Below are positions 29,407 through 52,247 of a stretch of 63,118 nucleotides of DNA, in pieces. The notes under the pieces were generated by a model, which saw only the letters and a list, made by a program, of their open reading frames with translations, did no database searches and was not told where the DNA came from. This stretch comes from Methanobacteriota archaeon. Lineage in GTDB: Archaea; Thermoplasmatota; Poseidoniia; Poseidoniales; Poseidoniaceae. The stretch spans positions 1 through 63,118 of the forward strand of contig PBMS01000046.1 in NCBI GenBank assembly GCA_002722695.1, read 5' to 3'. The translations under genes and the position numbers were made by a program. Position 1 is the first letter of the stretch, and every line of letters starts with the position of its first letter.

Positions 29407-29518
29407 AAAAGGGCTACTGAGGGACCGACCTCTCGTAGGTAACCCATCATCTTCAAAAGGGGTTCAGAAGTGGCCAACGACGCCAGCCTTGAGGCTGGAC
29501 CTAAAATGAGGGATACAA

Positions 29519-32500
29519 ATGGAAGAACAATTGGATACGAAGGCGGTTCAGCCAAGTGCCACAATGGGGTTGCTGCTCGCACCCTTGGCCGTGCTGCTCG
29601 CTCTTGCCACCACCCGGGTCGTGGGCATTGACTACGACTTGACGTTGAACAACATGACGCCGATGCTGGTTGTCGCCGTCGCAAGCATGGCCGCTTTGCT
29701 GCCACGCATCCTGAAAGAAACTCAACCCCATTTGTCCACCTCCACCGTTTCCCTCGGCGTGTTGGTGTTGGCCATCGTCGGTGCCGAGTTGCTTTACATG
29801 TTCGCAGACGTCGACGCCGTTGCTGCATTGATGTTCGCCATCATCGTCGTGCTCGGCTCAAACCTCGACCTTCGCGGTCGACACGAATGGATGACGACGA
29901 TGGTGTTCACAGCCGTCGGTTTTTGGATTGCTGTTTCCGCAGCAGGGGACGCCTACGCTGCCCTCCCAACCACCTACACCATGGCCAGCGGTGAACTCGT
30001 TTCAACAATGAATCTGGAGCGTCAAGCCACGGCCTACGTTTTCTTTGCCTACTGGACCATGTTTGCACTCGCTGGCTTGTTGGCTGGTGTGCTCGCACGA
30101 GGAAACCTCAACCCGGGTGCCGAAGACGGCTGGTTTTCTTTCCTGGGCCAAACCAAAGGATTCAATCGATCGGCAACGCCGCTGATCCTCGCTCTTGTCG
30201 TGTCGATTCTCGCCTTTGCGGGTTCGCTGTGGCACTTTAACTCGGTTGAGGTTTTCAACCAGTTGGGCATCACCACTGAAGACGGTTACCACGGCTACGT
30301 GGGGTATTGGAGCGCCTTCTTGACCGGTGTTGTTGCGTTGATGATCGCAGGCATGGTTGCCGAGCGGTGGTACACTCGATCGATGCTTCTTGGATCCATG
30401 TGGGTGCTGTACCAAGTCTCCGCATCGTTCGAGGCCGGCATGTGGTACAATGAAAACTTGGACGGAACATGGGGCGCTTTGATTTGGCTCGCCATCACGT
30501 TCTTCCTGTGCGTCGGTGTGTACTCAATCGGCAATCACGAGCGATACGGAGGCTGGGCCAACCGCGGTGAGCACGAACCTTCCCAGGCTCGCTTGTTCCT
30601 GCGAGCCCACGGTGCCGGCATGATGATCGCTCTGGCGTTCATCGTTGGCCTCGCCATCCGCATCCAGTGGTACGCTGTGCCGTCAATGAATGCGTTTGGA
30701 ACAGGAAACTGGGACATGACCGGAGGCTCCGACCCATGGTACATGAAGCGAGTTGTGGACTACATTCTGGCCAACAACGCTCACCTGGTGGTCGACCCCG
30801 ACCGGTTCTACCCCATCGGTGGTATCAACCCCCGTCCGCCGCTGTTTTCGTGGTCCATGGCCCTTGGCGCCATGGCGGTCGAACCCTTCTTGGGTTCACC
30901 TGAAAATGCGGTCTGGTGGAGCATGCTTGCTCTGCCAGCCGTTTACGGCGCGCTCACGGTGTTCCCCATCGCCAGCATGGCCCGGGATCATTTCGGCAAA
31001 GGCGCCGCTGTTCTGGCTGCTTGGCTCATCGCCTTCATGCCAGCCCACGTGACCCACTCGACATGGGCACTCGCCGACCACGATTCGTTTGTGATGCTCT
31101 TCATCTCGATCGGATTCATGTATTGGCTGCGAGCGGTGAAGTACGCTGGCTCAGCCCGTCTCACCAAGACCACAACCCCCCATCCGCTGTCCTTTGTTCG
31201 TGCGTTCCACGACGTGGCCGAACAGCGCAAGGCGGCCATGGCCAACGCGGTCCTCGCCGGCGTTGCGTTCGGTATCGTTGCGCTTGGCTGGAAAGGGTTC
31301 GTGGTCGGCCCGTCCATTCTTTTCCTGGCTTACGCATTGCAGGTCGCTCTGAACATGTTCCGCCGCCGAGACTCCACGGTCCTCAGCGTGATGTTCTTGG
31401 TAATGCTGACGACCACGTTCTTGATGGCCTTGCCCTTCTACGCACACCCTCAGCTCAACCTGGTGTTCGATTCGACCGGATTGCAGCCGTTCCTGTTCAT
31501 CTTCGGCTTCACCATCGCCATCGCCTACATCACCACCGGATTCCGAGACAAGCCCTGGTTGCTGGTTCTCGGTACTCTTGGCAGCGTGGCTCTGGTCTTC
31601 TTTGCCGTGTTGTATGCGCTCAAAGTGGCTGACATCTCGGACGCATGGGATGTGTTGTTCACCGGTAGCGGATACTTCACGAAGACCAAGATCTTCGGGA
31701 CTGTTGCTGAAGCCAATGCGCCCAATCGCGCTCAATTGTTTGCCTCCTTCGGACCCATCACGTTCCTGCTCGCTCTCATCATGGGCGGCGGCTTGTTGTG
31801 GCGCGGTCTGCGGTCGCGAAACGGCACCGCTCTCGTGTTTGGTGTCTGGGTCTTTGCGGCGACCTTCATGGCATGGAACGCCGCTCGTTTCATGTTCAAC
31901 GCCACGCCCATCATGGCCATTCTCGGTGCAGCGGGCATCGTTGCCTTTTGGCGATGGGCGGAGTGGAGCAGTTTGGTCCGCTCGTGGAAGAAATTTGGAA
32001 TCCGAACACCGGGCGATCGAATCGCTGGTGCTCGTAAGGCTGTTTGGCGCACACCTCAATTCTCCGCAGTGTTCCTCGTCATGATCATGATTTTCAGTCA
32101 ACAAGCCACCTACGGACTGGACTCCGCCATCCCCGGCACCTCAACCCAAGAGCAGGAAATCGACGAACGCATCTACAACATTGTCCCGGACATCCTCCGA
32201 TTCGATGAATTAGGCTTCTCTCTGTTGGACAACAAAGACGACGATGGTCGTCGATACCTCGGAAGTTTCGGATCGTCGTTCAACGACAACGGCTGGAACG
32301 CCGCCTACCAATGGCTGGAAAATCAAGACAGGCAAATGAAGTACTCGGACAAACCGGCCTTTGTCTCGTGGTGGGACTACGGATTCCAAGCTCTCAGCAC
32401 GGGCCAGCACCCCTCTGTCTCGGACAACTTCCAGTCGGGAATCCCCGCAGCAGGAAACATGCTGCTCGCACGAAGTCAGGACGACTTGACAGCGATGTTC

Positions 32501-35500
32501 ATTTGGCAACTCTCAGAGGGCGATCGCACGTACGCCAGCGACGGTGAGGATTACAAGATGACGGAACGGTTCATCGACACGGTTGACGCCTACCTGACCG
32601 ATGACCAAATGGACGACTTCCAAACCATGCAAATGACCTTTGATGAAACCATGATCGACTTCATCGAGACGCGGTCCTTCAACGTCGTGAAAACCAATCG
32701 AAACATCGTGATGGCGGAGGGTTACACCCACGAGGCCGGTGTTTTCGACAGCACCACCAAGGTCTACAAGATTTACAAGGACTATGAACCCATTCCCTGC
32801 ACGGACGCCGTTTCAACGTCGTGCGTCGGTGATGCTTGGGGTTCAATGGACCAAGCCGACATCACGTTCAACAACAACGTTCGAACTGCATCGGAAACCG
32901 TTGAAGGCCGAACTCACACCATCTTTGGCGATTATTGGTACACCGACGACCTTCTCGACGAATACACCTCGGTTTCAACGTCGATTCATCGAAAGAACGC
33001 ACGCTTGGCCATGGCGGTTCAGCTGTTGACTGAAGCGTTTGATGCTCACCCAACCGCAAGTATACACGATCTGTACCACGACCTCATCAACCTTGAGGGA
33101 CACTACAAAGTTCAAGATTACGAAGGCGCACCCGGCGAAACCATCAGCAGAGACCATGAAATTCGGTACTTCGCTGTCGACGATCGGTTGTACCCTCGAG
33201 CCGGCCGATACACGGCCGATGCGCAGTACAATCGAGGACAACCCATGGGCATCTTTGGTGCTCCCACCATTTTGGCAGGCCAAGACATCACCACCTACAT
33301 GGACGAAGTGTACGAAACCGTGCGAGGCGATTTCCAAGATGAAATGACCCGAGAGGAGGTGGACGAAGCCATGCAGAAGGACTTCCTGAACCAACAAGCC
33401 GGTGCCGACATCGACATGCTGCAGATTGAAGACGTGCGAGTGGACCACAACCCCGCCTTCTTCGACACCATGGTCGCACGAACTTACGTCGGATACGGTG
33501 CGTCCACGTTGGGTCTTGACGTTGGCTCAAGCAATCCACAACCCGCTCAGCACTTCGGGCAGTCGGGCTCTCCAGGGAGCATTCTCACCAATTCGTTGCC
33601 GCTTCCGGGGGCCATGATGAACCACTTTGTGGTCTCCAACTGGTACAGCGAGGTTGAGGAATCATCGATACAGAGCACCAACACCCTCGTTAAAATTCTG
33701 AAGTACTATCCCGGTGCAACCCTGACCGGCCAAGTCACCATGGGCGATAACGGCGAGCCCCTGCCGGGCGTGCGGTTGCTCATTGAGCGAGATGCATTCT
33801 CCGGTGAGAATGGAGAGGACTTGGACGCCGATACATACTGGGTCCCCATCGGATTCGTGGACGCCGACGACGAAGGAAACTATGAGTTCCTCGTCCCCGC
33901 TGGCCGCATCCGAATTTCCGCCTTTGCGGGCATCTTTGACGCCACCGCAGCGCGCGACAACATCCGAGACGGTTCGTACGGGCAGCGACTCGGTGACATT
34001 CTCACCGAGTACAATGAGGACCGAGAGATCAACGAAATCACTGCAATTTTGGGCCAAGTGGCCAACATGACCTGGATGGGCGAATCTCAGTTGAACGTCA
34101 CTTCAGAGGAAGCGAACCGTTCGGTTTCGTTTGACAAGACCCTCGATCTTGCCGTCCAAAGCAGCGGTGTTTCTGGCACCGTCGTTTGGTCCGGTGATGA
34201 AGCGTTCAGCGGTGATCCAATTTCGGAAACCACGTTCATCCTGAGAAACATTTGGTCGATGACGGACAACTACACCGTCGAAACCACCAGCGGTTCATTC
34301 ACCTCTGAAGACTCCCGCATCCTCCAAGGAACGGGCGAAGCGACTCTGGTTGAGAACGGCTCCTTTGACAGCGAAGGCATCGCTCTTGCGAGCAACTTCA
34401 TCGGAACCTTCACTCGAGACATCGGCAACGAGCGCTCGTTCTTTGCCAACGGTACGTGGTCTGGAAACGGTGTGCTTGAAGCTTCGTGGGTCGATGCTAC
34501 CGACGTGGTGGAGTGCGATACGGACAACGAATCCAACGCCATCATGCCCACCAACCAAACGCTTTGTGTCATTGAATCCGGCGACACGCCTTCCTATCGA
34601 CTGGAGGGCACCGTCGAAGCCTTTGGCACCTTTACGTCCGAAGGGACATCCACGCTGAGCCGCACCTACGGAGATGCTGATACCTCTCAAGGAGAAACCC
34701 TCGAGGGAGCCGGACTCTTCGAAGGGACTGGAACCTTCAACGGCACCGGGTTGTTCGTTGGTGTAGGGTCCTTCTCTGGCCCCATGGTGGAACCCGGTTC
34801 CTTTTACAAGACCGGACTTTTGCCAGGGACCTACAACATGATTGCACAATTGGCCAACGGAAAGGAAGTCCTCCTACCCGACCCGGTTGAAATCGGCGTC
34901 GAACCCAGCTACGATCTTGACATGAACATGCCAGGTGCCATCTTCAAGGACACCCTGTTTGACATGAACGGTGAAATCATGCCCAACCAAACCATCGAAT
35001 TTGTTGACGTTGACTTGGGTGAGGAGTTTACCGTGATGATCGACACCGATGAAAACGGCAACTTTTCCTACGGACCGATTCCGGTGGGCGACTACTACTA
35101 CAGAGGTGACGTCGATAACGACGGCTGGTACGACTTCAACGAATCCACGTTCGTCACCGACGCTGTCACGAACATCACGATGGCTTTGAACGTTCCAGAA
35201 ACCGCCGACGTCTCGCTGACGCTCGTTTCCCCGGTCGACCCCGTGTCAGCGGAACCCTTGTTCGATGTGGCCAATCGTACCATCACCTTCCAAAACGAAG
35301 TTGACGTTCTCGATCCGATCAACGTGACGAGTGACGAGAACGGTGAACTCTACGTCGAACTTCTCTACGGCGTCTGGAACATACGCGATGACGTAAACCC
35401 GGAATTTGTGCTCTTCGACCAAATTGAGCTGGAACCAGGAACCGGCGATGTGGTTCAAGACGTCACCTACGCTCAAGCAGCGTACATCAACGGAACGATG

Positions 35501-38500: not shown

Positions 38501-39064
38501 TTCACGGTCTTCGCACCGAGCACCTACACAGACGGCGACGACTTTGAATTGGTTGTCTACGTCTCAAGCGAAAACGAAGAGGTCGAACGCAAGGAAGTCA
38601 AGGTCCAAATCAAGAAGGCCGTGATTGCCCTCACACTGGACACCGATCGAATCGCCACGGAGTCCGACCTCATCGCCGGCAAGAGTGGAGCCGTGCGCGT
38701 TCCTGTGGAGAACGTTGGGCTTTTGGACGCACCGTCGGTCATCGTCTACCTTACACCACCCAACGGTGTTGAACTCTCGCAGACCATCTCGGTTCCCGCC
38801 GGTGGCGAAGGGATGGCGGTGTTTGACGATCTGACGTTCAACCAAGGCAACCAGCGCTTCGATTACCGAATCGAGGTGGCCGGTGCTGAATCAGCCAGCG
38901 TTGAATCCCTCCCAGCAGACGGTGATTTCCCGCTTGAGTACAACACCGAGACCACTGCAGACGGTGAATCCGTGTGGATGACCCTTCTGATTGTGGTGTT
39001 GGGCCTGCTCGTGATTTACGGTGGCGTTCGCACCGCCCGCAGCCGAGGCGGAACCCGCTTCTGA
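29519..39064 (+). CDS. aglB: giant oligosaccharyltransferase fusion protein (extra N-terminal TM module + AglB/STT3 core + beta-sandwich array of about 1,750 aa + C-terminal TM)
   Basis: This is a single open frame of 3,181 codons. The WWDYG motif is at nt 32369-32383 (residues 951-955). The first-loop acidic motif is GGSDPWYMKRVVDY. There are about 13 STT3-type helices at residues 370-950 and about 10 further helices at residues 1-370. CarboxypepD_reg-like and CARDB-like repeats lie downstream. The terminal segment is WMTLLIVVLGLLVIYGGVRTARSRGGTRF. Confidence 0.9.
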   Translation: MEEQLDTKAVQPSATMGLLLAPLAVLLALATTRVVGIDYDLTLNNMTPMLVVAVASMAALLPRILKETQPHLSTSTVSLGVLVLAIVGAELLYMFADVDAVAALMFAIIVVLGSNLDLRGRHEWMTTMVFTAVGFWIAVSAAGDAYAALPTTYTMASGELVSTMNLERQATAYVFFAYWTMFALAGLLAGVLARGNLNPGAEDGWFSFLGQTKGFNRSATPLILALVVSILAFAGSLWHFNSVEVFNQLGITTEDGYHGYVGYWSAFLTGVVALMIAGMVAERWYTRSMLLGSMWVLYQVSASFEAGMWYNENLDGTWGALIWLAITFFLCVGVYSIGNHERYGGWANRGEHEPSQARLFLRAHGAGMMIALAFIVGLAIRIQWYAVPSMNAFGTGNWDMTGGSDPWYMKRVVDYILANNAHLVVDPDRFYPIGGINPRPPLFSWSMALGAMAVEPFLGSPENAVWWSMLALPAVYGALTVFPIASMARDHFGKGAAVLAAWLIAFMPAHVTHSTWALADHDSFVMLFISIGFMYWLRAVKYAGSARLTKTTTPHPLSFVRAFHDVAEQRKAAMANAVLAGVAFGIVALGWKGFVVGPSILFLAYALQVALNMFRRRDSTVLSVMFLVMLTTTFLMALPFYAHPQLNLVFDSTGLQPFLFIFGFTIAIAYITTGFRDKPWLLVLGTLGSVALVFFAVLYALKVADISDAWDVLFTGSGYFTKTKIFGTVAEANAPNRAQLFASFGPITFLLALIMGGGLLWRGLRSRNGTALVFGVWVFAATFMAWNAARFMFNATPIMAILGAAGIVAFWRWAEWSSLVRSWKKFGIRTPGDRIAGARKAVWRTPQFSAVFLVMIMIFSQQATYGLDSAIPGTSTQEQEIDERIYNIVPDILRFDELGFSLLDNKDDDGRRYLGSFGSSFNDNGWNAAYQWLENQDRQMKYSDKPAFVSWWDYGFQALSTGQHPSVSDNFQSGIPAAGNMLLARSQDDLTAMFIWQLSEGDRTYASDGEDYKMTERFIDTVDAYLTDDQMDDFQTMQMTFDETMIDFIETRSFNVVKTNRNIVMAEGYTHEAGVFDSTTKVYKIYKDYEPIPCTDAVSTSCVGDAWGSMDQADITFNNNVRTASETVEGRTHTIFGDYWYTDDLLDEYTSVSTSIHRKNARLAMAVQLLTEAFDAHPTASIHDLYHDLINLEGHYKVQDYEGAPGETISRDHEIRYFAVDDRLYPRAGRYTADAQYNRGQPMGIFGAPTILAGQDITTYMDEVYETVRGDFQDEMTREEVDEAMQKDFLNQQAGADIDMLQIEDVRVDHNPAFFDTMVARTYVGYGASTLGLDVGSSNPQPAQHFGQSGSPGSILTNSLPLPGAMMNHFVVSNWYSEVEESSIQSTNTLVKILKYYPGATLTGQVTMGDNGEPLPGVRLLIERDAFSGENGEDLDADTYWVPIGFVDADDEGNYEFLVPAGRIRISAFAGIFDATAARDNIRDGSYGQRLGDILTEYNEDREINEITAILGQVANMTWMGESQLNVTSEEANRSVSFDKTLDLAVQSSGVSGTVVWSGDEAFSGDPISETTFILRNIWSMTDNYTVETTSGSFTSEDSRILQGTGEATLVENGSFDSEGIALASNFIGTFTRDIGNERSFFANGTWSGNGVLEASWVDATDVVECDTDNESNAIMPTNQTLCVIESGDTPSYRLEGTVEAFGTFTSEGTSTLSRTYGDADTSQGETLEGAGLFEGTGTFNGTGLFVGVGSFSGPMVEPGSFYKTGLLPGTYNMIAQLANGKEVLLPDPVEIGVEPSYDLDMNMPGAIFKDTLFDMNGEIMPNQTIEFVDVDLGEEFTVMIDTDENGNFSYGPIPVGDYYYRGDVDNDGWYDFNESTFVTDAVTNITMALNVPETADVSLTLVSPVDPVSAEPLFDVANRTITFQNEVDVLDPINVTSDENGELYVELLYGVWNIRDDVNPEFVLFDQIELEPGTGDVVQDVTYAQAAYINGTMRNYPATSVLEWQTWNNETPTAEKLETSEAASGLTVNVVSGDLEFSTVANVTGDFSIRVPSGFTYHLTTESVVTNRAYGSLVNVEIGTDLDLGPLYIEPTTLVNGVVYLYENTTRWDSSLPSWEPTEIVATNEDGLQWRATTNELGEFAFDLTDGTWDIDVSDDRLNVSTVDGLSVSYVSTEALSVMELTAEPDMVNVLMHVFLNSAEDGTFENGTMATPAFSLDPIDESKDTLYFTSDDYTEPGVITVSLAPGGYDLTFNRTSATNENATDYDLVGEQFFDALRIGLDAIDEPFEVALKNTYLVSGTLTNTTGDGIANDFLLYNEAGDEWFNIGSDANGSFAAYVPAGEWLVIVAPFNNANHTETLRQPLTVAAESDRTGLDITTSISVEVSMQLMEAVTESALSDMTVTAVSHDGFGNVTFERTNEDGNATELLMPGTWSFYFNRTIGTKSWFMDTSDAPFTTDDADENNSLVLDPVYATLEVEIGGKVYWDLNNNSAPSLGEGIPDMNVTILGNNNTDVSQTVSTDEEGVWRVFVPIRDVYNVTVEKEGFETVYYETENQTGYTVHDSPDSTDIEVSAGLVLVEGTVTDQLDADRLIDADIVLYPVAGIEREPVHVDGGMNDTTLEWSASVEPGEWVVVVTQSNPGINGGGVSIGLLDATVANGGNVSMVMALGGYVDLLTAWTDFEQNTHHAGSGDDGADMIQDDVELEVTFDEMSWVMSVPTSGELRALFPEGSVSFDSEFTTVQHESELEMEYYGGQTTTVNADSTIAATLQFNRRVNSALDITLDVPSVVDANVLDADDSELEAIVDMTNESAYKKIEFDYNVVYNGTETLDVFTVGGEMSLAQDSDLWTVEFYNQSSNEYEETINVALGIGENASVSTTISVRISLPDVADAWHLANGHRMTMRLQTDLGESSQASIKIFVPQTFGFTISEETEEVGMSALVERQFTFDLTNDGNGQDSFTIALLESGVPAEWSVTPMSSTLTLNKGETRTQQFTVFAPSTYTDGDDFELVVYVSSENEEVERKEVKVQIKKAVIALTLDTDRIATESDLIAGKSGAVRVPVENVGLLDAPSVIVYLTPPNGVELSQTISVPAGGEGMAVFDDLTFNQGNQRFDYRIEVAGAESASVESLPADGDFPLEYNTETTADGESVWMTLLIVVLGLLVIYGGVRTARSRGGTRF
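33680..38930 (+). repeat. array of Ig/CarboxypepD_reg/CARDB-like beta-sandwich modules inside the aglB mega-ORF
   Basis: Recurrent patterns include ...G.V....G.P.....V........T.D..G.[YF].F..[VL]P.G.[YW]... (for example ATLTGQVTMGDNGEPLPGVRLL...DDEGNYEFLVPAGRIRI and VSGTLTNTTGDGIANDFLL...DANGSFAAYVPAGEWLV). CARDB-like modules occur near the C-terminus (VRVPVENVGLLDAPSVIVYL...VPAGGEGMAVF). Confidence 0.7.
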
Positions 39065-39128
39065 TGTTCACTTTCACGTGGATTTTCAAACAAGGGTTCA
39101 TGAGGACCACAACTGGGTAGCGCAAGCC

Positions 39129-40337
39129 ATGGAAGGGCTGCGAGATGTGGAATACCTTCCCGAGCCATCCGACCGGCGCATCGTGTCTGCGGTGGACCCC
39201 ACGGTGATCGGTTTCCAAGATCAGTGGCGTTCAGAGACCATGGGTTGGGCCCCGTTGACCGTTGAACCGGTGGTTCAACATCAACGAGGGAGATTTTCCA
39301 TCTCAGGTCTGGTTGTGTTTGCGTTGCTGGTCTCGGTAAGCCTCCTGATGTGGCAGAACCAGTGGCTCGTCGTCGAATTACCACTTCCGCAATCCGAGTG
39401 GGCGTTTGAGGAAACAGAACTTCGCGAGGCTCAGGCATCCGGATTGACCGGAGAGGGTGTGCGAGTGTGCATGGTCGACACCGGTATGGACACGAACCAT
39501 GAGGCCTTCAGCGGCGTCAGCGTCCAGTTCAAAGACCTCGTGGGGAATTCTCGAGCACCCGTTGATTACGGTGCTGTGGCGCACGGTACGCTGATGGCCG
39601 GCCTGCTGCTTTCCCAAGACGACCATCAACTCGGTGCGGCACCGAACGTATCGTTCGCCATGGTGGCGGCGCTTTCCGACAACGGCAACGGAGAGAACAC
39701 CGGCCTGGACGACGATGTTGCCGATGCCATTCGTTGGTGTCAATTTGAATTCAGTGCCGACATCATCTCCCTGTCCTTGGGCGGTTCAGAAGAACGAAGC
39801 GGGTCTGAAGGGGGCTCTTCGTCCGCAACTCGGCAGGCAACGGACGCAGGCATTTACGTGGTTGCTGCAGCAGGGAACGACGGCCTTGACGACGACGGCG
39901 ATGTCGCCTCACCCAGCAGCGCACGATTGGCCATATCCGTAGCAGCCTCGATCGAAGGCGGCGGTGTTTGGGCCAACTCTTCGGTTGGCTCACTTATCGA
40001 CCGAGAAGGCGGGGTTCGGGAACATCCGCACATGAAACCCGAGGTCGCAGCTCCCGGCGAGGGAATCATCAGCACGGGCGGAGAAAACCGTTGGTATTCA
40101 AGCAGCGGGACATCGGACGCCACCGTCTTTGTAACCGGAGCTCTTGCGCTCGTCCTCGAGGCGCGACCCATGTTGAAGCCCCAGTCCAACGGCGATGCGT
40201 CGTGCTTGATCGCAGTGAAGGAAGCCTTGATGGAGTCGATGCAAACCGACACGATTGTGCACGACGAGCGAGGAGGATACGGAGTCCTCAATGCGCAGTC
40301 CTGGTTGGAACACACTTCACAAATCACCTCCTGTTGA
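39129..40337 (+). CDS. membrane-anchored subtilisin-like serine protease (peptidase S8), paralogue of 9217-10611
   Basis: The triad motifs are VCMVDTGMDTNHEAF, VAHGTLMAGLLL and SGTSDATVFVTGAL. The signal-anchor is FSISGLVVFALLVSVSLLMW. The start is uncertain: GTG 39021 overlaps aglB by 44 nt, and GTG 39078 or ATG 39129 are alternatives. Confidence 0.8.
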   Translation: MEGLRDVEYLPEPSDRRIVSAVDPTVIGFQDQWRSETMGWAPLTVEPVVQHQRGRFSISGLVVFALLVSVSLLMWQNQWLVVELPLPQSEWAFEETELREAQASGLTGEGVRVCMVDTGMDTNHEAFSGVSVQFKDLVGNSRAPVDYGAVAHGTLMAGLLLSQDDHQLGAAPNVSFAMVAALSDNGNGENTGLDDDVADAIRWCQFEFSADIISLSLGGSEERSGSEGGSSSATRQATDAGIYVVAAAGNDGLDDDGDVASPSSARLAISVAASIEGGGVWANSSVGSLIDREGGVREHPHMKPEVAAPGEGIISTGGENRWYSSSGTSDATVFVTGALALVLEARPMLKPQSNGDASCLIAVKEALMESMQTDTIVHDERGGYGVLNAQSWLEHTSQITSC

Positions 40338-40447
40338 GGTGCGTTTTCTCGAGTACAATCAACCAAGTGGCCGCTTCCGTGGCCCGTTTACGAGTTAAAA
40401 AAAGCGTTTTCTGCATGGTTTACGGGTGAATTTTCGTGATATTCTCG

Positions 40448-40455
40448 ACATAAAT
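40448..40455 (+). promoter_or_regulatory. candidate TATA box (ACATAAAT) for the beta-helix adhesin / STAND regulator transcription unit
   Basis: This AT-rich box sits in the 190-nt intergenic region. The predicted TSS near 40479 would exclude the ATG at 40476 and fits the SD-preceded ATG at 40530. Confidence 0.3.
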
Positions 40456-40516
40456 TGATACTCTAAGATTGCCCAATGAGGCGCAGTATTATATTCGGGG
40501 CGTACATGGGGAAAAC

Positions 40517-40522
40517 AGGTGA
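40517..40522 (+). promoter_or_regulatory. Shine-Dalgarno AGGTGA
   Basis: AGGTGA lies 7 nt upstream of the ATG at 40530. Confidence 0.55.
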
Positions 40523-40529
40523 ATCGCCG

Positions 40530-43500
40530 ATGTCGCAAAAAAATCGTTTGAAATCAGTATCGCTCGTGATGCTCTACATGACCTCGCTCATGCTGGCGAT
40601 GGTGGCTGTACCGTCGGCAACGGCCGTCAACGAAACCACCCAAGGCATTGTCTCGGGCACCGAAACGTGGTCGGGCACCATGAATCTTCAAGGCGACGTC
40701 GAAGTGGCCGAGGGTGCTAAATTGATTGTGAACGCAGGAACCACGGTCAACATTCCCGCCGGCAATTTCATTGATGTTCGGGGTGCCATCTGCATCGGCG
40801 ATGCTGCTTGCGGTGCCAGTGCTGGATCATCCTCTGCCAAGGCTCGGTTCATCTGGTCCACGCCGACCGATGATACGAAAACCGGTCGCTGCCTTGACAC
40901 ACAGAGCAATGTCCTGAACAATCCGGACGCAGCCTGCGGGTCAGGTATGATCATCCGGGACACGATCGACCAGTCCATTACGTCCATCAACTTTGCACAT
41001 TTTGAGAACGCCTACGGCTTTCCCATCTACGTCGCATCCTTGCAATCTGTTCAGTACGGAGCACTGGTGTTTGACGGCTCAACCACGACCGCCAACGGAC
41101 TCTCGTTCACCTCCATCAACACCTCCAACGTTCTCGCAGTGGACTACGCCGCTCCCCTCCTAACGGATTCCACCTTTGAGTTGGGCGTGGACGGCCAAGG
41201 CTACGATGCAGCAGCGGTTCGCGCCTACGACGCAGGCGCCGGTATTCTTTCGACGTTTGAGTTGAAGAACTCCGATTTCACCGGCAACGATGCAGATTGC
41301 GGTCAACAGGGAGGCGGTCGAGCTGTCATCTACATTGAAAACTCCTACATCGATATGGACAATCTCGACATCAAGGACAACGCCTATGGGATTTTGATGA
41401 AGTCAAGTTCAGGTACCCTCACCAACTCCCAAATCAACGTCAAATGCAACGCTGTTGACACCAACTCGCTCAAAAAGACAGGAAACATTGAGCACACGCT
41501 TGAGGTCAACAACAACGACATCACCACGGCCGAGGGTGCTGGCATCACGGCGTACGACGGCGCCAAAGTCTACGCCGAGGGCAACACCATTTCCGGTGCC
41601 TCGGACGGGTCTGGCGTCGGCATCCGTGGCTCTGAGGTTGAACTTCATCGCAACACCATCGGGCCCATCGGCGGGTGGAACGGCTTGTGGATTTACGGCA
41701 CGTCCGACGTGATCGCAGAAAACAACACCATCCAAGAAACGGGCAAAGAGCCCGTCCTTATCGGTGAGTATCACTACCAAGACCAAGGTTGGCAGGTTCC
41801 TGCTCCGTCTGCTGCCCGTTTGTACTTGGCCAACAACGTCATCATGAACAACACCGGAACCTGCAATTCCCAGATGTATGGCGGTGATTTCCCTTGCCCT
41901 GCTGTTCACGTGTTCAGGTCCTCCGCTACGATTCTGGACAACGACATTTCGGGGAACAACGGCGACATCATCCGCGCCAAGGGCTCCCTCATCAACGTCC
42001 AACGAAACACAGCCGACTCGCAGGGCGGCTTTGCAGGGAACGTCAGCGCTCACGACACCAACTACGGCGACAAGTACGGTTCCATCGCTTACTTCTCAGG
42101 AAACACGTGGACGGGTGTTTCACAGGTCTACAACGTCACCGAGTCTCGTGTCACCGTGCAGTCCGAGCAGATTCCGTCCCCGGGCAACGGTGAACTCTAC
42201 CCCGTCAGCATCTCGTGGCTCGGCGCAGAGTGCCCCTTCGTGCAGAACGAGTGTCTCCAGCTGCCCGGAACCGTCGCTCTCCCACCCGCTGAAATGCCTC
42301 TCGCTCTGGAACTCGTCGAAAACGCAACCGTGTTCTCGTTCGCAGATCTCCAGAACTTTGACTCAAGCATGATTCACGTGCAGAATCAAAACACCGCTTG
42401 GGGTTCGCAAGTTCGCGAGGGTGAACTGGTCCGCTACCAGGTCAAGGCAAAGAACTCCAACGTTGAAGGGGCCACGGTCATCATCAAGGACTCTACAGGG
42501 CTTCCGCTCTACGAATTGACCACGGATGCGTTTGGCTTCACTCAGCAAGTTTCCCTTCCCTCCGACTTCTTGTTGGACCGAAATTGGAACCACGTGGTCG
42601 GCGACAAAAACGCCGCCATCCCCGGGACCAACGACGGAACGGGTCAACCCGTTGTGGTGGACGAGGACTCCTGCGCCGACGGCATTGACAACGACGGAGA
42701 CACCTACATCGACGGCGACGACAGCGACTGCATCAACGGTCGAGAGCGTCCATTTTATTCGGTTGAGGCGTTCAAATTCGGCAGCGGCCGGGACGATTTC
42801 TCCTACGTCTTGACGGGTCCGATCGACGACATCATCAATCTCGAAAACCTACGACCCAGCGTCAGCGTGAACGAACCCGATGGCTACTCTTACGCCACAA
42901 CCGTTCGAATCACCGGACAAGCTTGGGACGGAGCAAAATGGCCCTACGCCAACGACAACACCGCCCAGCAGGCGCAGTTTGGCATCGTCAAGCGTGTCGA
43001 AATTCAACCGCCCGGCTCCACCGACTGGTTCTACGCCTCCGATGCCTCGGGCGCAGGCGGCGAAATCACCATGGAAACGCACCCGTTCAAAAATTGGGTG
43101 TACGAGTGGGACGGTGCCGCTCATCCAGAGGGGGAGGGCGACATCACGTTCCGAATCCGATCCTACGACGGATTGGATTACTCACCGGTTGAAGTCCGCC
43201 AGTACAAACTCAATCTTGTTGCACCAACCCTCCTGGTGGACGTGCCGACCCAAGGCAGCGTGCACAACAACGGCAAGGTGCTCTTCCAAGGCACCGCCTC
43301 TGACCCGTATCAGGGCACCTACGGAAGCGACGTCAAGCAGATTTGGTTCAACATTGTCGGTCCAGGCACCACGCAATCCTTCTTCCAGCAGGGTTCAACC
43401 AGTTGGTCCTATGAATGGAACGTTGTTGATCTGCCCACCGGTGAATACACCGTCTCGGTTTGGGCTGCGGACAGCGATTTCTGCATCGGCGAAGCAACGG

Positions 43501-44927
43501 TATCGGATGGGTGCGTGGTTGAAACTCGCACCATCACCATCAACAACGACAACATTCCACCCAATCTCCAACTGTCGTGGATCGGTGCTGAGGACCAGTC
43601 GAGCGGTGGCATCGACGGCGGCACCTTGCGTGCTTCCGACGACACCAAGATCATGGGCGTTGCTCGAGACATCGGTGGATTTGTCACACGTGTGGAAATT
43701 GAAATCACCGATTTGGCCAACGGCTTGGTGCTGAACAACGGACCCCTACCGGTCACCAATTTTGCCGTTGACGGTTCTTGGGTGGCAACTTGGGACACGT
43801 CCAAACTCGTTCACGACAGCGTCTACGCCGTGACGGTACGAGCTTACGACGGCGACGACTACTCCGATGATGTTGTTTGGCGGATGACCGTCAACAACCC
43901 GTTGGATGCTGAAAACATCGATCCGGTGTTCAACGAAACAAACTGGGTCTCAACTTGGACCATCTTCTGCGATCAAAATTCGAACTCCTTCGACAAGTGC
44001 GGTGGCGGTGTTTCTTTTGACCTCGCTGAATTCTTCGAGGACCCCGACGGCACAGGAGAAGCTGGAAACGACCTCGAGTTCTACGTCTTTGACGACGAAG
44101 CGACCATTGAAGACGACTTCTACGACGATTTCATCACCATCACGTCCATGGGTGTGTTGACCTACGACCCGATGACCTACATGGCTCAAACAACCACCAA
44201 CATTCCGGACTGGTCGCTGAATTCCGTTATGGTCTATGCGCAAGACGACCAGGAATCCAAGGCTTTCTCGCTGAAGATGAATTTCCTTGTGGTCGCTGTT
44301 TCCTTCACGGTTGAACGAGTGGACTCGGGTGACATCACCGTCAACGACCCCGCCGAATTCCGAGGAAACGGCCTGCCCGGCAGCACCGTCATCGCTCGAT
44401 TTGCCGATGGAAACGCCAGGTTGAACTCGACACGGGTGCTTTCCGACGGCTCATGGAACATGGAACTGACGGCCGGTCAACTCAGTGGCATTGAGGGTTC
44501 ATCTGAGGTCATCTTTGAGATGGACGGTCAAATTTTCAAGTTCGCTGGTCAAACCGAAAACGCCGAGTTCTCGGTCATGGTTTCCAGCGGCAACGACGGT
44601 GGTTCCGGATTGCTGTTCATCGGTCTCATTGTGGTCGCAGTGTTGGCTCTTCTGGGCGTTGGCGCTTACTTCTTTATCGAGTTTGAAGAACTGCCTGACG
44701 AGGATGAGCTGACAGGAGACGATACGCCGGAGGAGGTTGACCCCTACGCTTGGGCCAAGAACAAGCAAACGCCCGAAATTCCCCAACAGCAGGCCCAACC
44801 AGAAGCCGCATCAGCTCCTGCACAAGCGGCAGCTCCCGCTGCCAGTCAACACCCAGGTTGGCTCTGGGATCAGGCCTCGAACCAGTGGGTGCCCGACCCC
44901 GACTACCAACAGCCACCACAGCAGTGA
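40530..44927 (+). CDS. giant surface protein: signal peptide + parallel beta-helix (PbH1/NosD-like) repeats + Ig-like modules + TM + acidic/PQ-rich cytoplasmic tail
   Basis: Signal peptide MSQKNRLKSVSLVMLYMTSLMLAMVAVPSATA. Beta-helix repeats include NSYIDMDNLDIKDNAYGILMKSS, NNDITTAEGAGITAYDGAKVYAEGNTISG and NNVIMNNTG. A Cys/Asp motif CADGIDNDGDTYIDGDDSDC lies at 42671-42731. The TM helix is LLFIGLIVVAVLALLGVGAYFFI (about 44608-44680). Confidence 0.85.
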   Translation: MSQKNRLKSVSLVMLYMTSLMLAMVAVPSATAVNETTQGIVSGTETWSGTMNLQGDVEVAEGAKLIVNAGTTVNIPAGNFIDVRGAICIGDAACGASAGSSSAKARFIWSTPTDDTKTGRCLDTQSNVLNNPDAACGSGMIIRDTIDQSITSINFAHFENAYGFPIYVASLQSVQYGALVFDGSTTTANGLSFTSINTSNVLAVDYAAPLLTDSTFELGVDGQGYDAAAVRAYDAGAGILSTFELKNSDFTGNDADCGQQGGGRAVIYIENSYIDMDNLDIKDNAYGILMKSSSGTLTNSQINVKCNAVDTNSLKKTGNIEHTLEVNNNDITTAEGAGITAYDGAKVYAEGNTISGASDGSGVGIRGSEVELHRNTIGPIGGWNGLWIYGTSDVIAENNTIQETGKEPVLIGEYHYQDQGWQVPAPSAARLYLANNVIMNNTGTCNSQMYGGDFPCPAVHVFRSSATILDNDISGNNGDIIRAKGSLINVQRNTADSQGGFAGNVSAHDTNYGDKYGSIAYFSGNTWTGVSQVYNVTESRVTVQSEQIPSPGNGELYPVSISWLGAECPFVQNECLQLPGTVALPPAEMPLALELVENATVFSFADLQNFDSSMIHVQNQNTAWGSQVREGELVRYQVKAKNSNVEGATVIIKDSTGLPLYELTTDAFGFTQQVSLPSDFLLDRNWNHVVGDKNAAIPGTNDGTGQPVVVDEDSCADGIDNDGDTYIDGDDSDCINGRERPFYSVEAFKFGSGRDDFSYVLTGPIDDIINLENLRPSVSVNEPDGYSYATTVRITGQAWDGAKWPYANDNTAQQAQFGIVKRVEIQPPGSTDWFYASDASGAGGEITMETHPFKNWVYEWDGAAHPEGEGDITFRIRSYDGLDYSPVEVRQYKLNLVAPTLLVDVPTQGSVHNNGKVLFQGTASDPYQGTYGSDVKQIWFNIVGPGTTQSFFQQGSTSWSYEWNVVDLPTGEYTVSVWAADSDFCIGEATVSDGCVVETRTITINNDNIPPNLQLSWIGAEDQSSGGIDGGTLRASDDTKIMGVARDIGGFVTRVEIEITDLANGLVLNNGPLPVTNFAVDGSWVATWDTSKLVHDSVYAVTVRAYDGDDYSDDVVWRMTVNNPLDAENIDPVFNETNWVSTWTIFCDQNSNSFDKCGGGVSFDLAEFFEDPDGTGEAGNDLEFYVFDDEATIEDDFYDDFITITSMGVLTYDPMTYMAQTTTNIPDWSLNSVMVYAQDDQESKAFSLKMNFLVVAVSFTVERVDSGDITVNDPAEFRGNGLPGSTVIARFADGNARLNSTRVLSDGSWNMELTAGQLSGIEGSSEVIFEMDGQIFKFAGQTENAEFSVMVSSGNDGGSGLLFIGLIVVAVLALLGVGAYFFIEFEELPDEDELTGDDTPEEVDPYAWAKNKQTPEIPQQQAQPEAASAPAQAAAPAASQHPGWLWDQASNQWVPDPDYQQPPQQ

Positions 44928-44936
44928 TGGTTCGTT

Positions 44937-44943
44937 GAGGTGG
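44937..44943 (+). promoter_or_regulatory. Shine-Dalgarno GAGGTGG for the STAND regulator
   Basis: It lies 5 nt upstream of the ATG at 44949 and only 10 nt after the stop of the preceding giant gene, which implies co-transcription. Confidence 0.55.
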
Positions 44944-44948
44944 ACTGC

Positions 44949-47474
44949 ATGGCCGTTCAGGCGAAACCCGGTGTTCAGGAGCGTATTCTGCTCCACTTGT
45001 TGGACTATTCCGACTTCAAAGACAGCATCGAGGTGCCCTTTGCCCTGTCCCAGATGGGCATCGCAAACGCCGTGGCCATCGCTCGTTCCAACGTACCTCG
45101 GGCCATTGCGGGATTGAAAGATCAAGGCATTTTGGTCGAGCGGCAAGCCCACGTGAAGGGTGTTTCGAGGAAGCGGAAAGCCTACTTTTTGACCGACAGC
45201 GGGGTATCGCTGGCTGGCGAGACCTGGGAGCGACTCTCTGAGTTCCCTGTTCGATGCATCTTGGACGACCAACCTGCGATCTCCACCACCCTTGGCGGCG
45301 CCAAATCCGTGCTGCCCTTTGAGATGCGTCCTGTTGATGTCATCCGCTACATCGACGAACACAACTGTTTGGACGTACGGAATCTCTCCGCTGATTTGGT
45401 TGAACGAGACTTGTCAAAGCACGTTGAGAAGCAACTGGTAACGGCTCTTGCCGATCTTCCTCGATTGCGTCATTTTTACGGTCGTGCCACCGAACTGGAC
45501 AACATGGTGAATTTGTTGGAGGCTCGCGCAACCACGCTTCTTGTTCCCGGCATTGCGGGTATCGGAAAAACCACGGTCGCTTCGAAGCTGATCGAGCGGT
45601 TCATGCACCGTCGAAATCTCCTGTACCACCGATGCCAAGATTGGGAAGGTTCTCGCTCCTTTTTTGAGTCGGTGGCCGATTGGCTTTCGAGCATGGGCAA
45701 CTCTGATTTTTCGACTTACCTCGCCGCAACACCCGTGCCTCAACCTGCGGACGCTGCAGGGTTGCTGGTGGAAGCTCTCGAAGGAACGCCCGCTCTTTTG
45801 GTCATTGACGACTTTCACAAAGTCTCGGACACGGTGCTGCACCAAACGTTCCAGGCCATGTCACTTGCCCTTTTGGGAAGCGAGGAGAAAATCGGTTTGG
45901 TGATCTTCTCTCGCTCGTTCAAACCCGTGGTCCCCACCAAAGACGCCGAAGGGAGGATTGCGAGCCTCGTTCTCCCTCTCGACGGTCTGGACCCTGAATC
46001 TGGGCGCAAACTTCTGACGAGTTTTGATTCACTTGAAGACGAGCAATGGCTTCACATCCACGGCTTGTCCCGAGGCCACCCGCTGGTACTGGAACTCATC
46101 AATCGAGGCGCTTCGGCCGGGGCCTTCCACGAAACGCTTGAGAATTACGTGACGGTTGAAATCTTTTCAAAACTCAGCGCAGAGCAAAAGCGCGTCCTGT
46201 CCGCACTGTCCATTTTCCGTGAACCCGTTGCCCTTGAAGCGCTGGCCCAGCAAGGACTCAACACCGACGAACTCGATGGACTTGTGGAATCGGGTCTTGC
46301 TCGACAAGCGGATTCCGAAACGTACGATGTTCACGACTTGATTCGAGAATTTCTTCTCAGGAGTCTGTCGAGTGCACTGCGAGAAGAGTTCCACGCCAAG
46401 TGCGTGGATTGGTATCGAAAACAAACCGCGTCCCAAGACGTGGTCATCGAGCTCATTTACCACACCATCAAATCAGGAAAATACGAAGATGCATCGGCGC
46501 TGGTGGTCAAGGAAGGACGCCAACTGGTGTCGCAGGGCCACATGGAGTTGCTCGGTCTGATTGAGCAAATTCAAACCGGTGAGTTGAACGCCGGGGTGGT
46601 CGTCCGTCTCGCTCAACTGCAAGGCGACATGCTTGCTCTTCTGGGTCGACTCGACGAAGCCGAGACGGTGCTGAGCAACAGTCATGATCGAGCCAAGACA
46701 TCCACCGATGAATTGGTCCAAGCTGAAATTCTTTCATCCATGGCTGACGTCAGCCGAAAGCAAGGCAACAGCGACCTCTCCCTTAGCCGACACAAAATGG
46801 CTCTTCAGCATTACATCTCACTCGGTGATGCTCGTTGGGCGGCCCGAACTTACAACAACATTGGGTACCTTTTACGCCGGAAGAACGAGCGAACCAAGGC
46901 TCTGGAAGCCTACGGCGAGGTTGAGGCGATTTTGGAAAGTTCCGATGATGTGGACCTCATCAACAGCCAGATTACGCTGGCCAGGTCCCTGATCGATCTG
47001 GGTGAAGTTGATCGCGCTCGTGAACACGCCATGGCATCGCACGAACGAACCTCCGCCCTCGGCGATTCAATTCTTCACGCTCGAGCCCAAGCCGTTTTGG
47101 GTCGATATTATTCAAAAGTGGAGCAATCTGAACTCGCTTTGTTCCACTACACGGAAGCCCTTGAGGCAATGACCGAGGCCGGCGACGTTCAGGCCTTGGT
47201 TGAAATCACCATGCTGCTTGGCGAGGTGCTTCACGATGCTGGCCGCACCGATGAGGCTGTGGAACACTACGGTCAAGCGCTCGTTTTGGCCGAGGCCAAC
47301 GACCTGCGGATGCAAATCGGTGAACTCCTGACTCGTTTGGGCGGTGTAGCACCGGACCGCCAAGGCCGAATGGAGTATCTCCAGCGGGCTCTGACGGTGT
47401 TCAGAGAGTTGGGTGCCAAGAATCGCATGCGTGAAGTGCAGGTGCTGGTCCACAGGGCCGTCATGAGCCGATGA
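44949..47474 (+). CDS. wHTH - STAND/Arch_ATPase-type NTPase - TPR signal-transduction regulator
   Basis: The N-terminal winged-helix pattern is ERILLHLLDY...LSQMGIANAVAIARSNVPRAIAGLKDQGILVER. The F.GR..EL lead-in is HFYGRATELDNMVNLL. Walker A is PGIAGIGKTT (45549-45575) and Walker B is ALLVIDDFH. The C-terminal 350 aa or so carries TPR-like repeats (ARTYNNIGYLLRRKNERTKALEAY..., ALFHYTEALEAM...). Confidence 0.82.
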   Translation: MAVQAKPGVQERILLHLLDYSDFKDSIEVPFALSQMGIANAVAIARSNVPRAIAGLKDQGILVERQAHVKGVSRKRKAYFLTDSGVSLAGETWERLSEFPVRCILDDQPAISTTLGGAKSVLPFEMRPVDVIRYIDEHNCLDVRNLSADLVERDLSKHVEKQLVTALADLPRLRHFYGRATELDNMVNLLEARATTLLVPGIAGIGKTTVASKLIERFMHRRNLLYHRCQDWEGSRSFFESVADWLSSMGNSDFSTYLAATPVPQPADAAGLLVEALEGTPALLVIDDFHKVSDTVLHQTFQAMSLALLGSEEKIGLVIFSRSFKPVVPTKDAEGRIASLVLPLDGLDPESGRKLLTSFDSLEDEQWLHIHGLSRGHPLVLELINRGASAGAFHETLENYVTVEIFSKLSAEQKRVLSALSIFREPVALEALAQQGLNTDELDGLVESGLARQADSETYDVHDLIREFLLRSLSSALREEFHAKCVDWYRKQTASQDVVIELIYHTIKSGKYEDASALVVKEGRQLVSQGHMELLGLIEQIQTGELNAGVVVRLAQLQGDMLALLGRLDEAETVLSNSHDRAKTSTDELVQAEILSSMADVSRKQGNSDLSLSRHKMALQHYISLGDARWAARTYNNIGYLLRRKNERTKALEAYGEVEAILESSDDVDLINSQITLARSLIDLGEVDRAREHAMASHERTSALGDSILHARAQAVLGRYYSKVEQSELALFHYTEALEAMTEAGDVQALVEITMLLGEVLHDAGRTDEAVEHYGQALVLAEANDLRMQIGELLTRLGGVAPDRQGRMEYLQRALTVFRELGAKNRMREVQVLVHRAVMSR

Positions 47475-47475
47475 G

Positions 47476-47955
47476 TCATTGCACGGCTTGTGGCCTGTCA
47501 AGGGATAAGAACGTCAATCCGTTGTCGTGAACCACCCAAATCCGGTCAACGCCTGCGAGGGGCACACGCCCTTCGTGGCTGGATGAGCCCGTCCCGCTCA
47601 GTGAGATTTCGGTGTCGAGTGGACCTCCCTCGTCGATGAGAATCAGGGCTGTATCGTGCAGTTCAAGCCAAAACAGAGACTCATCGGCTTCGGATGGCCG
47701 CCAAGCAATTTCCTCAGCATACGACACGTTTCCACCCAGTCGGCTTGCTTCATCCGCCCGCTCAACCGCCGCCGCAATGTCGTCCATGTTGGCTTGAATG
47801 GCTTCCTCGTTCCATCGCAGGCGTGTGTTGGTCTCGATGTCCCAAGCCCAGATGCTGAACATGCTCATCAAAAGGACGCCGAGTAAGAACGTGAAGATGT
47901 AACCGAGTTCGGTCGCTGCGGCACCGACGTCGCGGTTCAACCTTGTTCGCTTCAT
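47476..47955 (-). CDS. class III signal-peptide protein, TadE/Flp-like pseudopilin N-terminus
   Basis: MKRTRLNRDVG|AAATELGYIFTFLLGVLLMSMF has a basic leader, a Gly, then a hydrophobic helix with Glu at +5 and Tyr at +8. Its ATG overlaps the upstream stop (ATGA at 47952-47955). Confidence 0.65.
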   Translation of the reverse strand: MKRTRLNRDVGAAATELGYIFTFLLGVLLMSMFSIWAWDIETNTRLRWNEEAIQANMDDIAAAVERADEASRLGGNVSYAEEIAWRPSEADESLFWLELHDTALILIDEGGPLDTEISLSGTGSSSHEGRVPLAGVDRIWVVHDNGLTFLSLDRPQAVQ

Positions 47956-52113: not shown

Positions 52114-52237
52114 GCGAACATCGGTCCTTGGACGCGGGAAGGACTTGAACACACCGCCTGTGGCCTTCAAGAAGGAGCCGTTTCCGAGGGTTTGTTGGCG
52201 AACTCAACACCGATTTGTATGAACATTGTTCCATCAC

Positions 52238-52247
52238 CCTCATAAGC
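52238..52247 (+). promoter_or_regulatory. candidate TATA box (CCTCATAAGC) for the TSP3 giant gene
   Basis: This is an identical decamer to the one at nt 217-226. It lies about 58 nt upstream of the ATG at 52302, which itself has a GGTGAG SD. Confidence 0.3.

Follow-up and report, generated by a model that had tools for sequence, protein, structure and literature searches.

A conserved envelope gene neighbourhood around a giant oligosaccharyltransferase in the Poseidoniales

Genes for envelope proteins that stand side by side may form a functional module or may simply have been inherited together. This question is raised by four consecutive genes on contig PBMS01000046.1 (assembly GCA_002722695.1), a stretch of 63,118 nucleotides, hereafter the window, from a Marine Group IIa (MGIIa) archaeon of the Poseidoniaceae. 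The four genes, referred to as the block, encode a giant AglB/STT3 oligosaccharyltransferase, an S8 subtilase, a beta-helix membrane protein and a STAND protein with wHTH and TPR domains. A sequence-only reading of the window had interpreted them as a self-contained envelope module composed of a glycosyltransferase scaffold, a processing protease, an adhesin or coat protein and a dedicated sensor-regulator, and had not recognised the set as a described system. Our literature searches agree on the latter point, since neither the block nor giant AglBs were found described in the literature searched on the envelope and glycosylation of Poseidoniales and Marine Group II (MGII). Self-containment itself is not demonstrated: the conserved synteny is not specific to the block, giant AglB occurs without the three partners, and in MGIIa separate upstream elements precede aglB and the S8 and beta-helix genes. 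The best explanation, which we hold with about even confidence, is a lineage-specific, chromosomally fixed envelope neighbourhood of the Poseidoniales that forms no autonomous cassette and, in MGIIa, is probably not one operon. Two pairs, aglB with the S8 gene and the beta-helix gene with the STAND gene, may plausibly be coupled in function. The four genes, with the corresponding frames of the open reading frame (ORF) finder, are the following:

29519-39064, plus strand: aglB, AglB/STT3 oligosaccharyltransferase, 3181 aa (ORF list and Pfam)
39129-40337, plus strand: S8 subtilase gene, 402 aa (finder ORF 39021-40337; start fixed by relatives)
40530-44927, plus strand: beta-helix membrane protein gene, 1465 aa (finder ORF 40476-44927)
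44949-47474, plus strand: STAND gene (wHTH-STAND-TPR), 841 aa (finder ORF 44940-47474)

All four ORFs are intact, and the ORF list together with the Pfam domains confirms the succession of plus-strand genes reported earlier; taken alone, a same-strand run of four genes is unremarkable (chance 1 in 8). The S8 start had been placed between 39021 and 39129. Relatives fix it at ATG 39129, because a stop codon just upstream closes the frame in most of them, and the conserved N-terminus M-E-G-L-R-D-V-E-Y-L-P-E-P begins right after that stop codon. GTG 39021, which would imply a 44-nt overlap with aglB, is ruled out by the same closed frame, so that a 64-nt spacer follows the aglB stop at 39064, with zero overlap. 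The start at 40530 proposed for the beta-helix gene holds: AGGTGA precedes this ATG and the lengths of homologues (1410-1518 aa) agree. The upstream ATG 40476 was rejected as a start; it lies within an ultra-conserved non-coding stretch and is missing in loci L024-L026. As described before, the STAND gene begins 21 nt after the beta-helix stop at 44927, at ATG 44949, behind its own Shine-Dalgarno sequence GAGGTGG (44937-44943). The three spacers of the block in the window thus measure 64 nt (aglB/S8), 192 nt (S8/beta-helix) and 21 nt (beta-helix/STAND).

Gene order among relatives

Relatives were collected in three ways: 34 species-representative loci came from a scan with the window protease, 3 metagenome loci of Marine Group IIb (MGIIb) were found with the protease of locus L033, and 4 deep lineages (L043-L046) were reached via 50%-identity representatives of AglB. 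As far as the contigs reach, tblastn recovers the string purD-aglB-S8-beta-helix-STAND, followed by converging pilin-like genes, in all 34 loci. The block genes are likewise all kept in the 3 MGIIb and 4 deep-lineage loci, where STAND is conserved best (50-56% identity) and AglB (33-39%), S8 (37-43%) and the beta-helix protein (34-38%) less so. The same order is found in genes 304-308 of the MGIIb metagenome-assembled genome (MAG) SIMO Bin 19-2, in the part of the published data that was available to us (Damashek et al. 2021, PMC9723583) and to which all statements on Bin 19-2 below refer. A lack of synteny in relatives had been named as the outcome that would speak against the module; the check was run and the order is unbroken in every Poseidoniales locus that reaches the block. 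The deposited titles of 33 of the 34 loci are Poseidoniales/Poseidonia, 'Methanobacteriota', 'Euryarchaeota' or Thermoplasmatota. The remaining locus, L020, is titled 'Verrucomicrobiales bacterium isolate ARS100' and carries the full block, its proteins being 73-90% identical; presumably mis-binning placed this contig in that public MAG.

Beyond the block, the window holds the following neighbours:

28098-29372: purD, the upstream neighbour of aglB
47476-51268, minus strand: three pilin-like genes downstream of STAND, followed on the same strand by a gene for an MBL hydrolase
52215-58052 and 58115 to the window end: two giant secreted-protein genes beyond the MBL gene

Conserved order within one slowly rearranging order of archaea is weak evidence for a functional module, and several features of the region weigh against a functional reading. 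MGIIa and MGIIb share most of the gene order over about 45 kb around the block, even for housekeeping genes (purD, deoA, TctA), and the synteny test therefore has little power. The order in Bin 19-2 is close to that of the window (deoA, PLD, TctA, three unknowns, purD, the block, MBL and a 5.7-kb giant), the flank genes having been paired on the basis of their size, order and strand; in L043-L046, sequence comparison confirmed purD, MBL and the giant. One member of the unbroken string, purD, plays no part in the envelope. Together with MBL and the giant it is almost equally fixed as the block, the loci being too few for a formal test. The unbroken order may thus be a matter of inheritance, not of selection.

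The main rival explanation builds on these features. It holds that four independent core genes have stayed together since the region has hardly rearranged from the Poseidoniales ancestor, with AglB performing housekeeping N-glycosylation, the S8 enzyme being one among several nutritional or extracellular proteases in a heterotroph that degrades protein, the beta-helix protein acting as a polysaccharide-binding or -degrading surface enzyme and STAND regulating unrelated targets. We consider it possible, if on balance unlikely. Collinearity from deoA to the 1,900-aa giant speaks for it, as does the presence of several subtilases in Bin 19-2 (Damashek et al. 2021, PMC9723583). It accounts less readily for the behaviour of the flanks, both of which have been remodelled several times while the five-gene string was never interrupted. 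On one side, carS precedes purD in MGIIb and the deep lineages. Elsewhere, the CARDB gene is inverted in L046 and GDH is inserted in L043 and L045. On the other side, the pilin-like trio follows STAND in L046 and throughout the MGIIa loci. The other lineages lack it, and in the MGIIb loci MBL is directly next. The trio (159, 744 and 361 aa), whose N-termini resemble archaeal type IV pilin (class III) signal peptides, amounts to an insertion or deletion exactly at the block edge.

The distribution of giant AglBs outside the Poseidoniales bears on the same alternative. When 1.84 billion cluster representatives were searched with residues 1-1200 of AglB, the matches fell into two classes. Members of the MGII class measure 3146-3228 aa and align from about residue 10; those of a second, much larger class measure about 2,100-2,800 aa and align only from query residue ~350-400. 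In a follow-up search, the named sources of the second class included Marine Group III (MGIII) euryarchaeote, Thermoplasmata archaeon and Methanomassiliicoccales archaeon, and many of its members are annotated 'carboxypeptidase regulatory-like domain-containing protein'. Both classes share an STT3 core fused to an array of CarboxypepD_reg/Ig-like domains with a C-terminal transmembrane (TM) helix and an approximately 2-fold enrichment in sequons. Unlike the MGII proteins, second-class AglBs lack the N-terminal domain and, in five loci, the S8, beta-helix and STAND neighbours. In these five outgroup loci (AglBs of 2168-2449 aa; MGIII and Methanomassiliicoccales included), tblastn finds no S8, beta-helix or STAND gene and the neighbouring genes are unrelated, which also counts against the functional reading. 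Giant AglB therefore predates the block and is independent of it, in line with the rival just described, and the four-gene block is a Poseidoniales arrangement.

Two of the outgroup contigs carry other associations. In L039 (10001-19479), from a Methanomassiliicoccales MAG, purD lies 1.6 kb from the giant AglB gene on the opposite strand and a CARDB protein gene follows AglB; the proximity of purD may be an old linkage or a coincidence. In L042 (1-10004), a Thermoplasmata contig, AglB is associated with giant surface proteins of another kind: upstream of the giant AglB gene, on the same strand, lie genes for proteins of 8356 aa and 1077 aa, the latter of the Ig/PKD type, and a 76-aa ORF that shares 4 nt with the AglB start.

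Conserved upstream elements and transcription

Gene order alone does not reveal how the four genes are expressed. The spacers are more informative, and in MGIIa they contain the following elements:

29435-29518, plus strand: aglB leader, conserved non-coding, with GAGGG 7 nt before the ATG
29452-29466, plus strand: motif copy TTCAAAAGGGGTTCA, 67 nt before the aglB ATG
29483-29498, plus strand: palindrome/hairpin CCAGCC-TTGA-GGCTGG within the aglB leader
39065-39128, plus strand: aglB-S8 spacer, holding motif copy TTCAAACAAGGGTTCA at 39085-39100, 44 nt before the S8 ATG
40437-40464, plus strand: TGATAYTCT direct repeats TGATATTCT and TGATACTCT, 19 nt apart, a candidate transcription-factor site
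40474-40522, plus strand: ultra-conserved promoter/5' region with the TATA-like TATTATATT at 40487-40495 and the Shine-Dalgarno sequence AGGTGA at 40517-40522

The aglB leader, about 85 nt long, is nearly invariant in 24 MGIIa loci, and its sequence AGCCTNNAGGCT was found again in L043 and L044. The core of its palindrome, AGCC-N4-GGCT, is invariant in all 18 aligned sequences, three of them from MGIIb. The motif TTCAAA(N1-2)RGGGTTCA occurs in exactly two full copies in the 63-kb window, one before aglB and one before the S8 gene, for 0 expected, and the copy before S8 is conserved in nearly all MGIIa loci. It may represent a promoter class for envelope genes. A near copy lies at 58085-58097, 31 nt before the next giant secreted-protein gene. 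The TGATAYTCT pair is unique in the window (0.01 expected) and occupies the same place before the beta-helix gene in 32 MGIIa loci; L027 and L030 each contain one other match to the pair. Immediately downstream, positions 40474-40510 do not vary, whatever the codon position, between species with only 60-90% protein identity. The TATA-like box that the sequence-only reading had noticed in the gap between the S8 and beta-helix genes corresponds to the conserved TATTATATT.

Could these spacers encode structured RNAs? Rfam models detect two tRNAs only in the whole window and nothing credible in the aglB leader at a permissive threshold. RNAalifold returns for this leader only the invariant 4-bp hairpin, without covariation. 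Single-sequence folds are no better than those of shuffled sequences, with z = -1.2 for the aglB leader, +0.6 for 40474-40522 and +0.2 for the third conserved spacer. On these grounds the conserved elements are read as DNA-level signals of the promoter or operator kind and not as structured RNAs. Since aglB, the S8 gene and the beta-helix gene each possess their own conserved upstream element in MGIIa, a single operon is unlikely; the arrangement of the elements suggests three putative units in this group, namely aglB, S8, and beta-helix together with STAND.

These elements cut both ways for the rival of independent core genes. Separate conserved elements and variable spacers speak for it. It has more difficulty with the 15-nt motif common to aglB and S8, of which no other full copy exists in the window, and with the packing seen in L043, L044 and L045, where the genes are 22-104 nt apart as in an operon. 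Against the functional reading, part of the evidence is restricted to MGIIa: the aglB/S8 motif and the TGATAYTCT repeats are absent at these places in MGIIb and the deep lineages, and spacers range from 22 to 409 nt between lineages (43, 34 and 22 nt in L043; 109, 409 and 181 nt in L046).

Per-gene metatranscriptome values, most of them zero, are available for Bin 19-2 in 7 samples (Damashek et al. 2021, PMC9723583). In the coastal samples FN66 and FN71, the four genes range from 0.16 to 0.38 coverage per million reads, for 0-0.08 in purD and 0.01-0.05 in MBL. In samples with active genus O1, aglB shows a borderline rise with a log2 fold change of 2.05 (adjusted p 0.06) and the beta-helix gene a non-significant one of 1.9 (adjusted p 0.27). 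In the portion of this dataset that was available, the four genes are expressed in situ and the values are too sparse for co-expression to be read from them.

The opposite extreme is the self-contained module, in which AglB would be the scaffold, S8 its dedicated processor, the beta-helix protein the coat or adhesin cargo and STAND the regulator of all three. Co-occurrence is 100% and the order fixed across the Poseidoniales, all three non-regulatory products are predicted by hydropathy to be membrane-tethered with external domains, the four genes have similar coverage in the two coastal samples and packing is tight in L043, L044 and L045. Against this stand the AglB class, which predates the other three genes and occurs without them, and the distribution of the elements, as the candidate regulator site precedes no block gene other than the beta-helix gene and another motif stands before aglB and S8. 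We judge this extreme improbable, and the properties of AglB and of the beta-helix protein considered below lower it further.

The four products

AglB is identified by Pfam STT3 (PF02516, 46.3 bits versus a gathering threshold of 24.5, E 5.7e-12) together with CarboxypepD_reg matches, and aligns to Archaeoglobus fulgidus AglB-L (AfAglB-L, PDB 3waj) over residues 397-807 and 947-978. The catalytic motif WWDYG at residue 951 aligns with that of 3waj and is nearly invariant in 30 relatives, as is the acidic cluster ADHD; GGSDPWY at residue 402 aligns with GGNDPWY of AfAglB, and a DK or MI motif near the catalytic site could not be placed with certainty. With 169 bits for a cut-off of 450, the protein falls outside TIGR04154, the archaeosortase-A-associated STT3 subfamily. 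It shares with AfAglB-L (GT66, PDB 3WAJ/3WAK) the STT3 core, the GG(S/N)DPWY loop, the ADHD cluster, WWDYG and the external catalytic domain, and differs from it in size, 3181 aa versus 868-875 aa for AglB-L. Two additions account for the description as a giant. The first, found in MGII only, is an N-terminal domain of about 370 aa (29519-30630) with about 10 predicted helices; its AlphaFold2 (AF2) model (pLDDT 73.5, pTM 0.74) has no fold relative in the PDB according to Foldseek (best E 0.08, TM 0.2). The second is a sequon-rich beta-sandwich extension of about 1,750 aa with a second TM anchor: the ectodomain spans residues ~1400-3150 and the C-terminal TM helix is predicted by hydropathy at 3152-3170, with many TM helices elsewhere in the protein.

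The enrichment of this extension in N-X-S/T sequons is a family property. The window AglB has 41 sequons between residues 1516 and 2874; residues 1401-2600 contain 35 for 13.8 expected, and the external catalytic domain (811-1400) contains 0 for 3.4 expected. Among the matches listed, 118 MGII orthologues are full length (3125-3227 aa), and their extensions average 44.9 sequons (range 31-58) versus 19.3 expected, a 2.3 times enrichment. The extensions of 185 outgroup giants average 28.1 versus 13.2 expected, about 2-fold. The C-terminal TM helix is present in 118/118 MGII and 178/186 outgroup proteins. The available annotation of Bin 19-2 lists one COG1287 gene (Damashek et al. 2021, PMC9723583), and AglB looks like the single, housekeeping oligosaccharyltransferase of the order. 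As apparently the sole such enzyme, to judge from that annotation, it is not dedicated to a module, which argues against the self-contained arrangement.

The protease is a clear Peptidase_S8 (115.9 bits versus 21.8, E 2.9e-33). Its Asp/His/Ser triad and oxyanion Asn, in the motifs VDTG, HGT, G(T/S)S and AAAGN, are invariant in MGIIa and MGIIb (15 orthologues). A conserved cytoplasmic N-terminus (YLPEPxD..I.SA.D) is followed by one TM segment predicted by hydropathy, about 35 aa and the catalytic domain, and the cytoplasmic peptide [YL]LPEPxD..I..A.D is retained even in MGIIb. An I9-type propeptide was not detected: Pfam gives no match and only about 35 residues separate the TM segment from the catalytic domain. 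With an N-terminal anchor and no propeptide, the active site would therefore lie at the membrane surface. The best NCBIfam match is mycosin TIGR03921, at 91.1 bits for a cut-off of 278.75, which leaves the protein outside that family. Like the mycosins (MycP) of type VII secretion, it is a membrane-tethered S8 protease encoded beside large envelope machinery. Mycosins carry a C-terminal membrane anchor; the anchor here is N-terminal and a secretion system is not nearby.

For the third gene, the sequence-only reading had proposed a beta-helix adhesin. The fold is borne out: Pfam Beta_helix (PF13229) scores 54.4 bits versus 25.9 (E 1.4e-14), accompanied by Big_7, and the AF2 model displays a right-handed beta-helix over about 500 residues (residues 10-510 of the model, pLDDT ~90). 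The layout is that of a type I membrane protein, with a signal peptide, the beta-helix at ~40-540, an acidic Cys-rich/Ca-type repeat, Ig-like domains, a TM segment and a conserved cytoplasmic tail (DPYAW ... HPGWLWDx4-5WVxDPxY); hydropathy places a C-terminal TM segment at 1379-1397 of the ORF and, at the N-terminus, either a signal or a TM segment. This agrees with the earlier statement that the three structural proteins are membrane-tethered, predicted TM segments being found in each. The term adhesin is not established, the fold being of the generic CASH type and the protein not being sequon-rich. Comparison with PDB sequences gives zero matches, and Foldseek matches to the beta-helix are weak (E 5.5e-5 to 1e-2, about 10% identity) and include phage tailspikes, PL6 lyase, AlgG/AlgE4, NosD, GH87, pertactin and the PfbA adhesin. 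The matches to adhesins (PfbA, pertactin) are as weak as those to enzymes (lyases, epimerases, glucanases, tailspikes), and catalytic residues could not be assigned. The adhesin of the self-contained module finds no support in the fold matches. What is common to this protein and CASH-type proteins such as tailspikes, PL6 alginate lyase, the AlgG/AlgE4 epimerases, NosD and PfbA is the fold of residues ~40-540; in the present family this fold occurs together with a type I anchor and a conserved cytoplasmic tail.

This family comprises 275 detected homologues. Among the 120 listed at full length (1410-1518 aa), every named source is Poseidoniales or Thermoplasmatota. Their sequons are not enriched (12.0 observed versus 15.0 expected), and the protein is therefore not an obvious preferred substrate of AglB; this too speaks against a functional tie within the neighbourhood and, more directly, against the self-contained module. 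In the cytoplasmic tail, the motifs DPYAW and HPGWLW[DN]x4-5W[VI]xDxxY are nearly invariant and the second is kept in MGIIb. Conserved cytoplasmic peptides on both the S8 and the beta-helix protein imply intracellular partners, which is difficult to reconcile with four unconnected core genes. A search for a shared docking motif yielded a sole match, the heptapeptide WVPDPxY, present in the beta-helix tail (44886, plus strand) and in the 744-aa pilin-like protein u744 (48071, minus strand); by a rough estimate, ~0.06 such matches are expected by chance.

The cytoplasmic STAND protein matches AAA_16 (33.5 bits versus 32.6) and TPR_12 (85.9 bits), and its Walker A (GIAGIGKTT) and Walker B (LLVIDDF) motifs can be read directly. 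The HTH_Crp_2 match at residues 15-69 is weak (21.2 bits versus 27). The best solved relative is the TPR-sensor STAND protein PH0952 (PDB 6mfv, E 4.9e-29 over residues 173-516); a weak match to MalT was also found. The protein resembles MalT and PH0952 (Pyrococcus horikoshii, PDB 6MFV) in having a NOD ATPase followed by a TPR sensor and a putative DNA-binding HTH effector, the last being a weak match here. MalT is restrained by MalK; by analogy, the tail of the membrane protein encoded next door might hypothetically control the present STAND protein.

A STAND protein with TPR repeats beside a protease also recalls Avs-like antiviral defence, in which the TPR-STAND would sense infection and the protease would be the effector. 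Beyond this architecture, PADLOC gives only generic, weak matches to a TPR model and a subtilase model and no signature of a defence system. At its N-terminus the STAND protein has a weakly matched HTH in place of a nuclease or protease effector, and structurally it comes closest to the MalT-like PH0952. The protease domain lies outside the cell, and the genes form a universal, single-copy, vertically inherited core, unlike defence islands. A defence locus is accordingly rejected as hardly credible.

How might the four products work within the neighbourhood that we favour? The roles of processing protease and dedicated regulator assigned earlier remain tentative. In MGIIa, aglB and S8 are probably co-regulated via their common rare upstream motif. 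The S8 enzyme would trim or mature membrane-anchored envelope proteins, for which the doubly anchored AglB ectodomain is an obvious candidate. The beta-helix protein may be a carbohydrate-binding or carbohydrate-processing surface protein whose strongly conserved cytoplasmic tail might dock the TPR sensor of the MalT/PH0952-like STAND encoded beside it, and the STAND switch could act through its wHTH on the TGATAYTCT repeats before the beta-helix gene. A bolder version, which we rate as rather improbable, makes AglB both enzyme and product: its ectodomain would be self-glycosylated into a glycocalyx or coat and cut free by the co-regulated subtilase, while the beta-helix protein would serve as a transmembrane receptor of polysaccharide on surfaces or particles, and its tail would gate the TPR-STAND. 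If true, one receptor and one regulator would form a signalling pair of a type not known to have been described in archaea.

Other genes of the window and significance

Several features lie outside the block and its immediate neighbours. The first giant downstream (52215-58052) is a 1945-aa secreted protein with TSP3-like acidic calcium-type repeats and 31 sequons for 15.7 expected; the second (58115-63118) begins with a signal peptide, measures 1668 aa or more and continues beyond the window end, for which reason the ORF list does not contain it. Further upstream, an ORF at 20714-23440 (plus strand) with an HD domain in its 3' part overlaps 20288-22039 (minus strand) by 1.3 kb. Relatives in L043 and L045 measure 437-465 aa, which makes a start of the HD gene near 22100 probable. 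A 1631-aa protein with six lamin-tail and two PLD domains (13871-18766, minus strand) was seen in L046 and is kept beside TctA or deoA in MGIIb (gene 296 in the Bin 19-2 annotation). A second, weak S8-like ORF of 563 aa lies at 8920-10611 (Pfam E 3.6e-6), and tRNA genes are located at 10680-10752 (minus strand) and 23482-23555 (plus strand).

All four products of the block belong to known families. What is new is the oligosaccharyltransferase architecture, present in databases and not found discussed, and an order-specific arrangement with candidate regulatory logic. An oligosaccharyltransferase fused to a sequon-rich ectodomain is a design common across Thermoplasmatota that was not found in the AglB literature searched. 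Few archaea of the surface ocean are as abundant as the Poseidoniales, none of which has been brought into culture; their envelope parts list now gains a giant oligosaccharyltransferase, apparently the only one, together with a membrane subtilase, an order-specific beta-helix surface protein, a MalT-like switch and candidate cis-elements.

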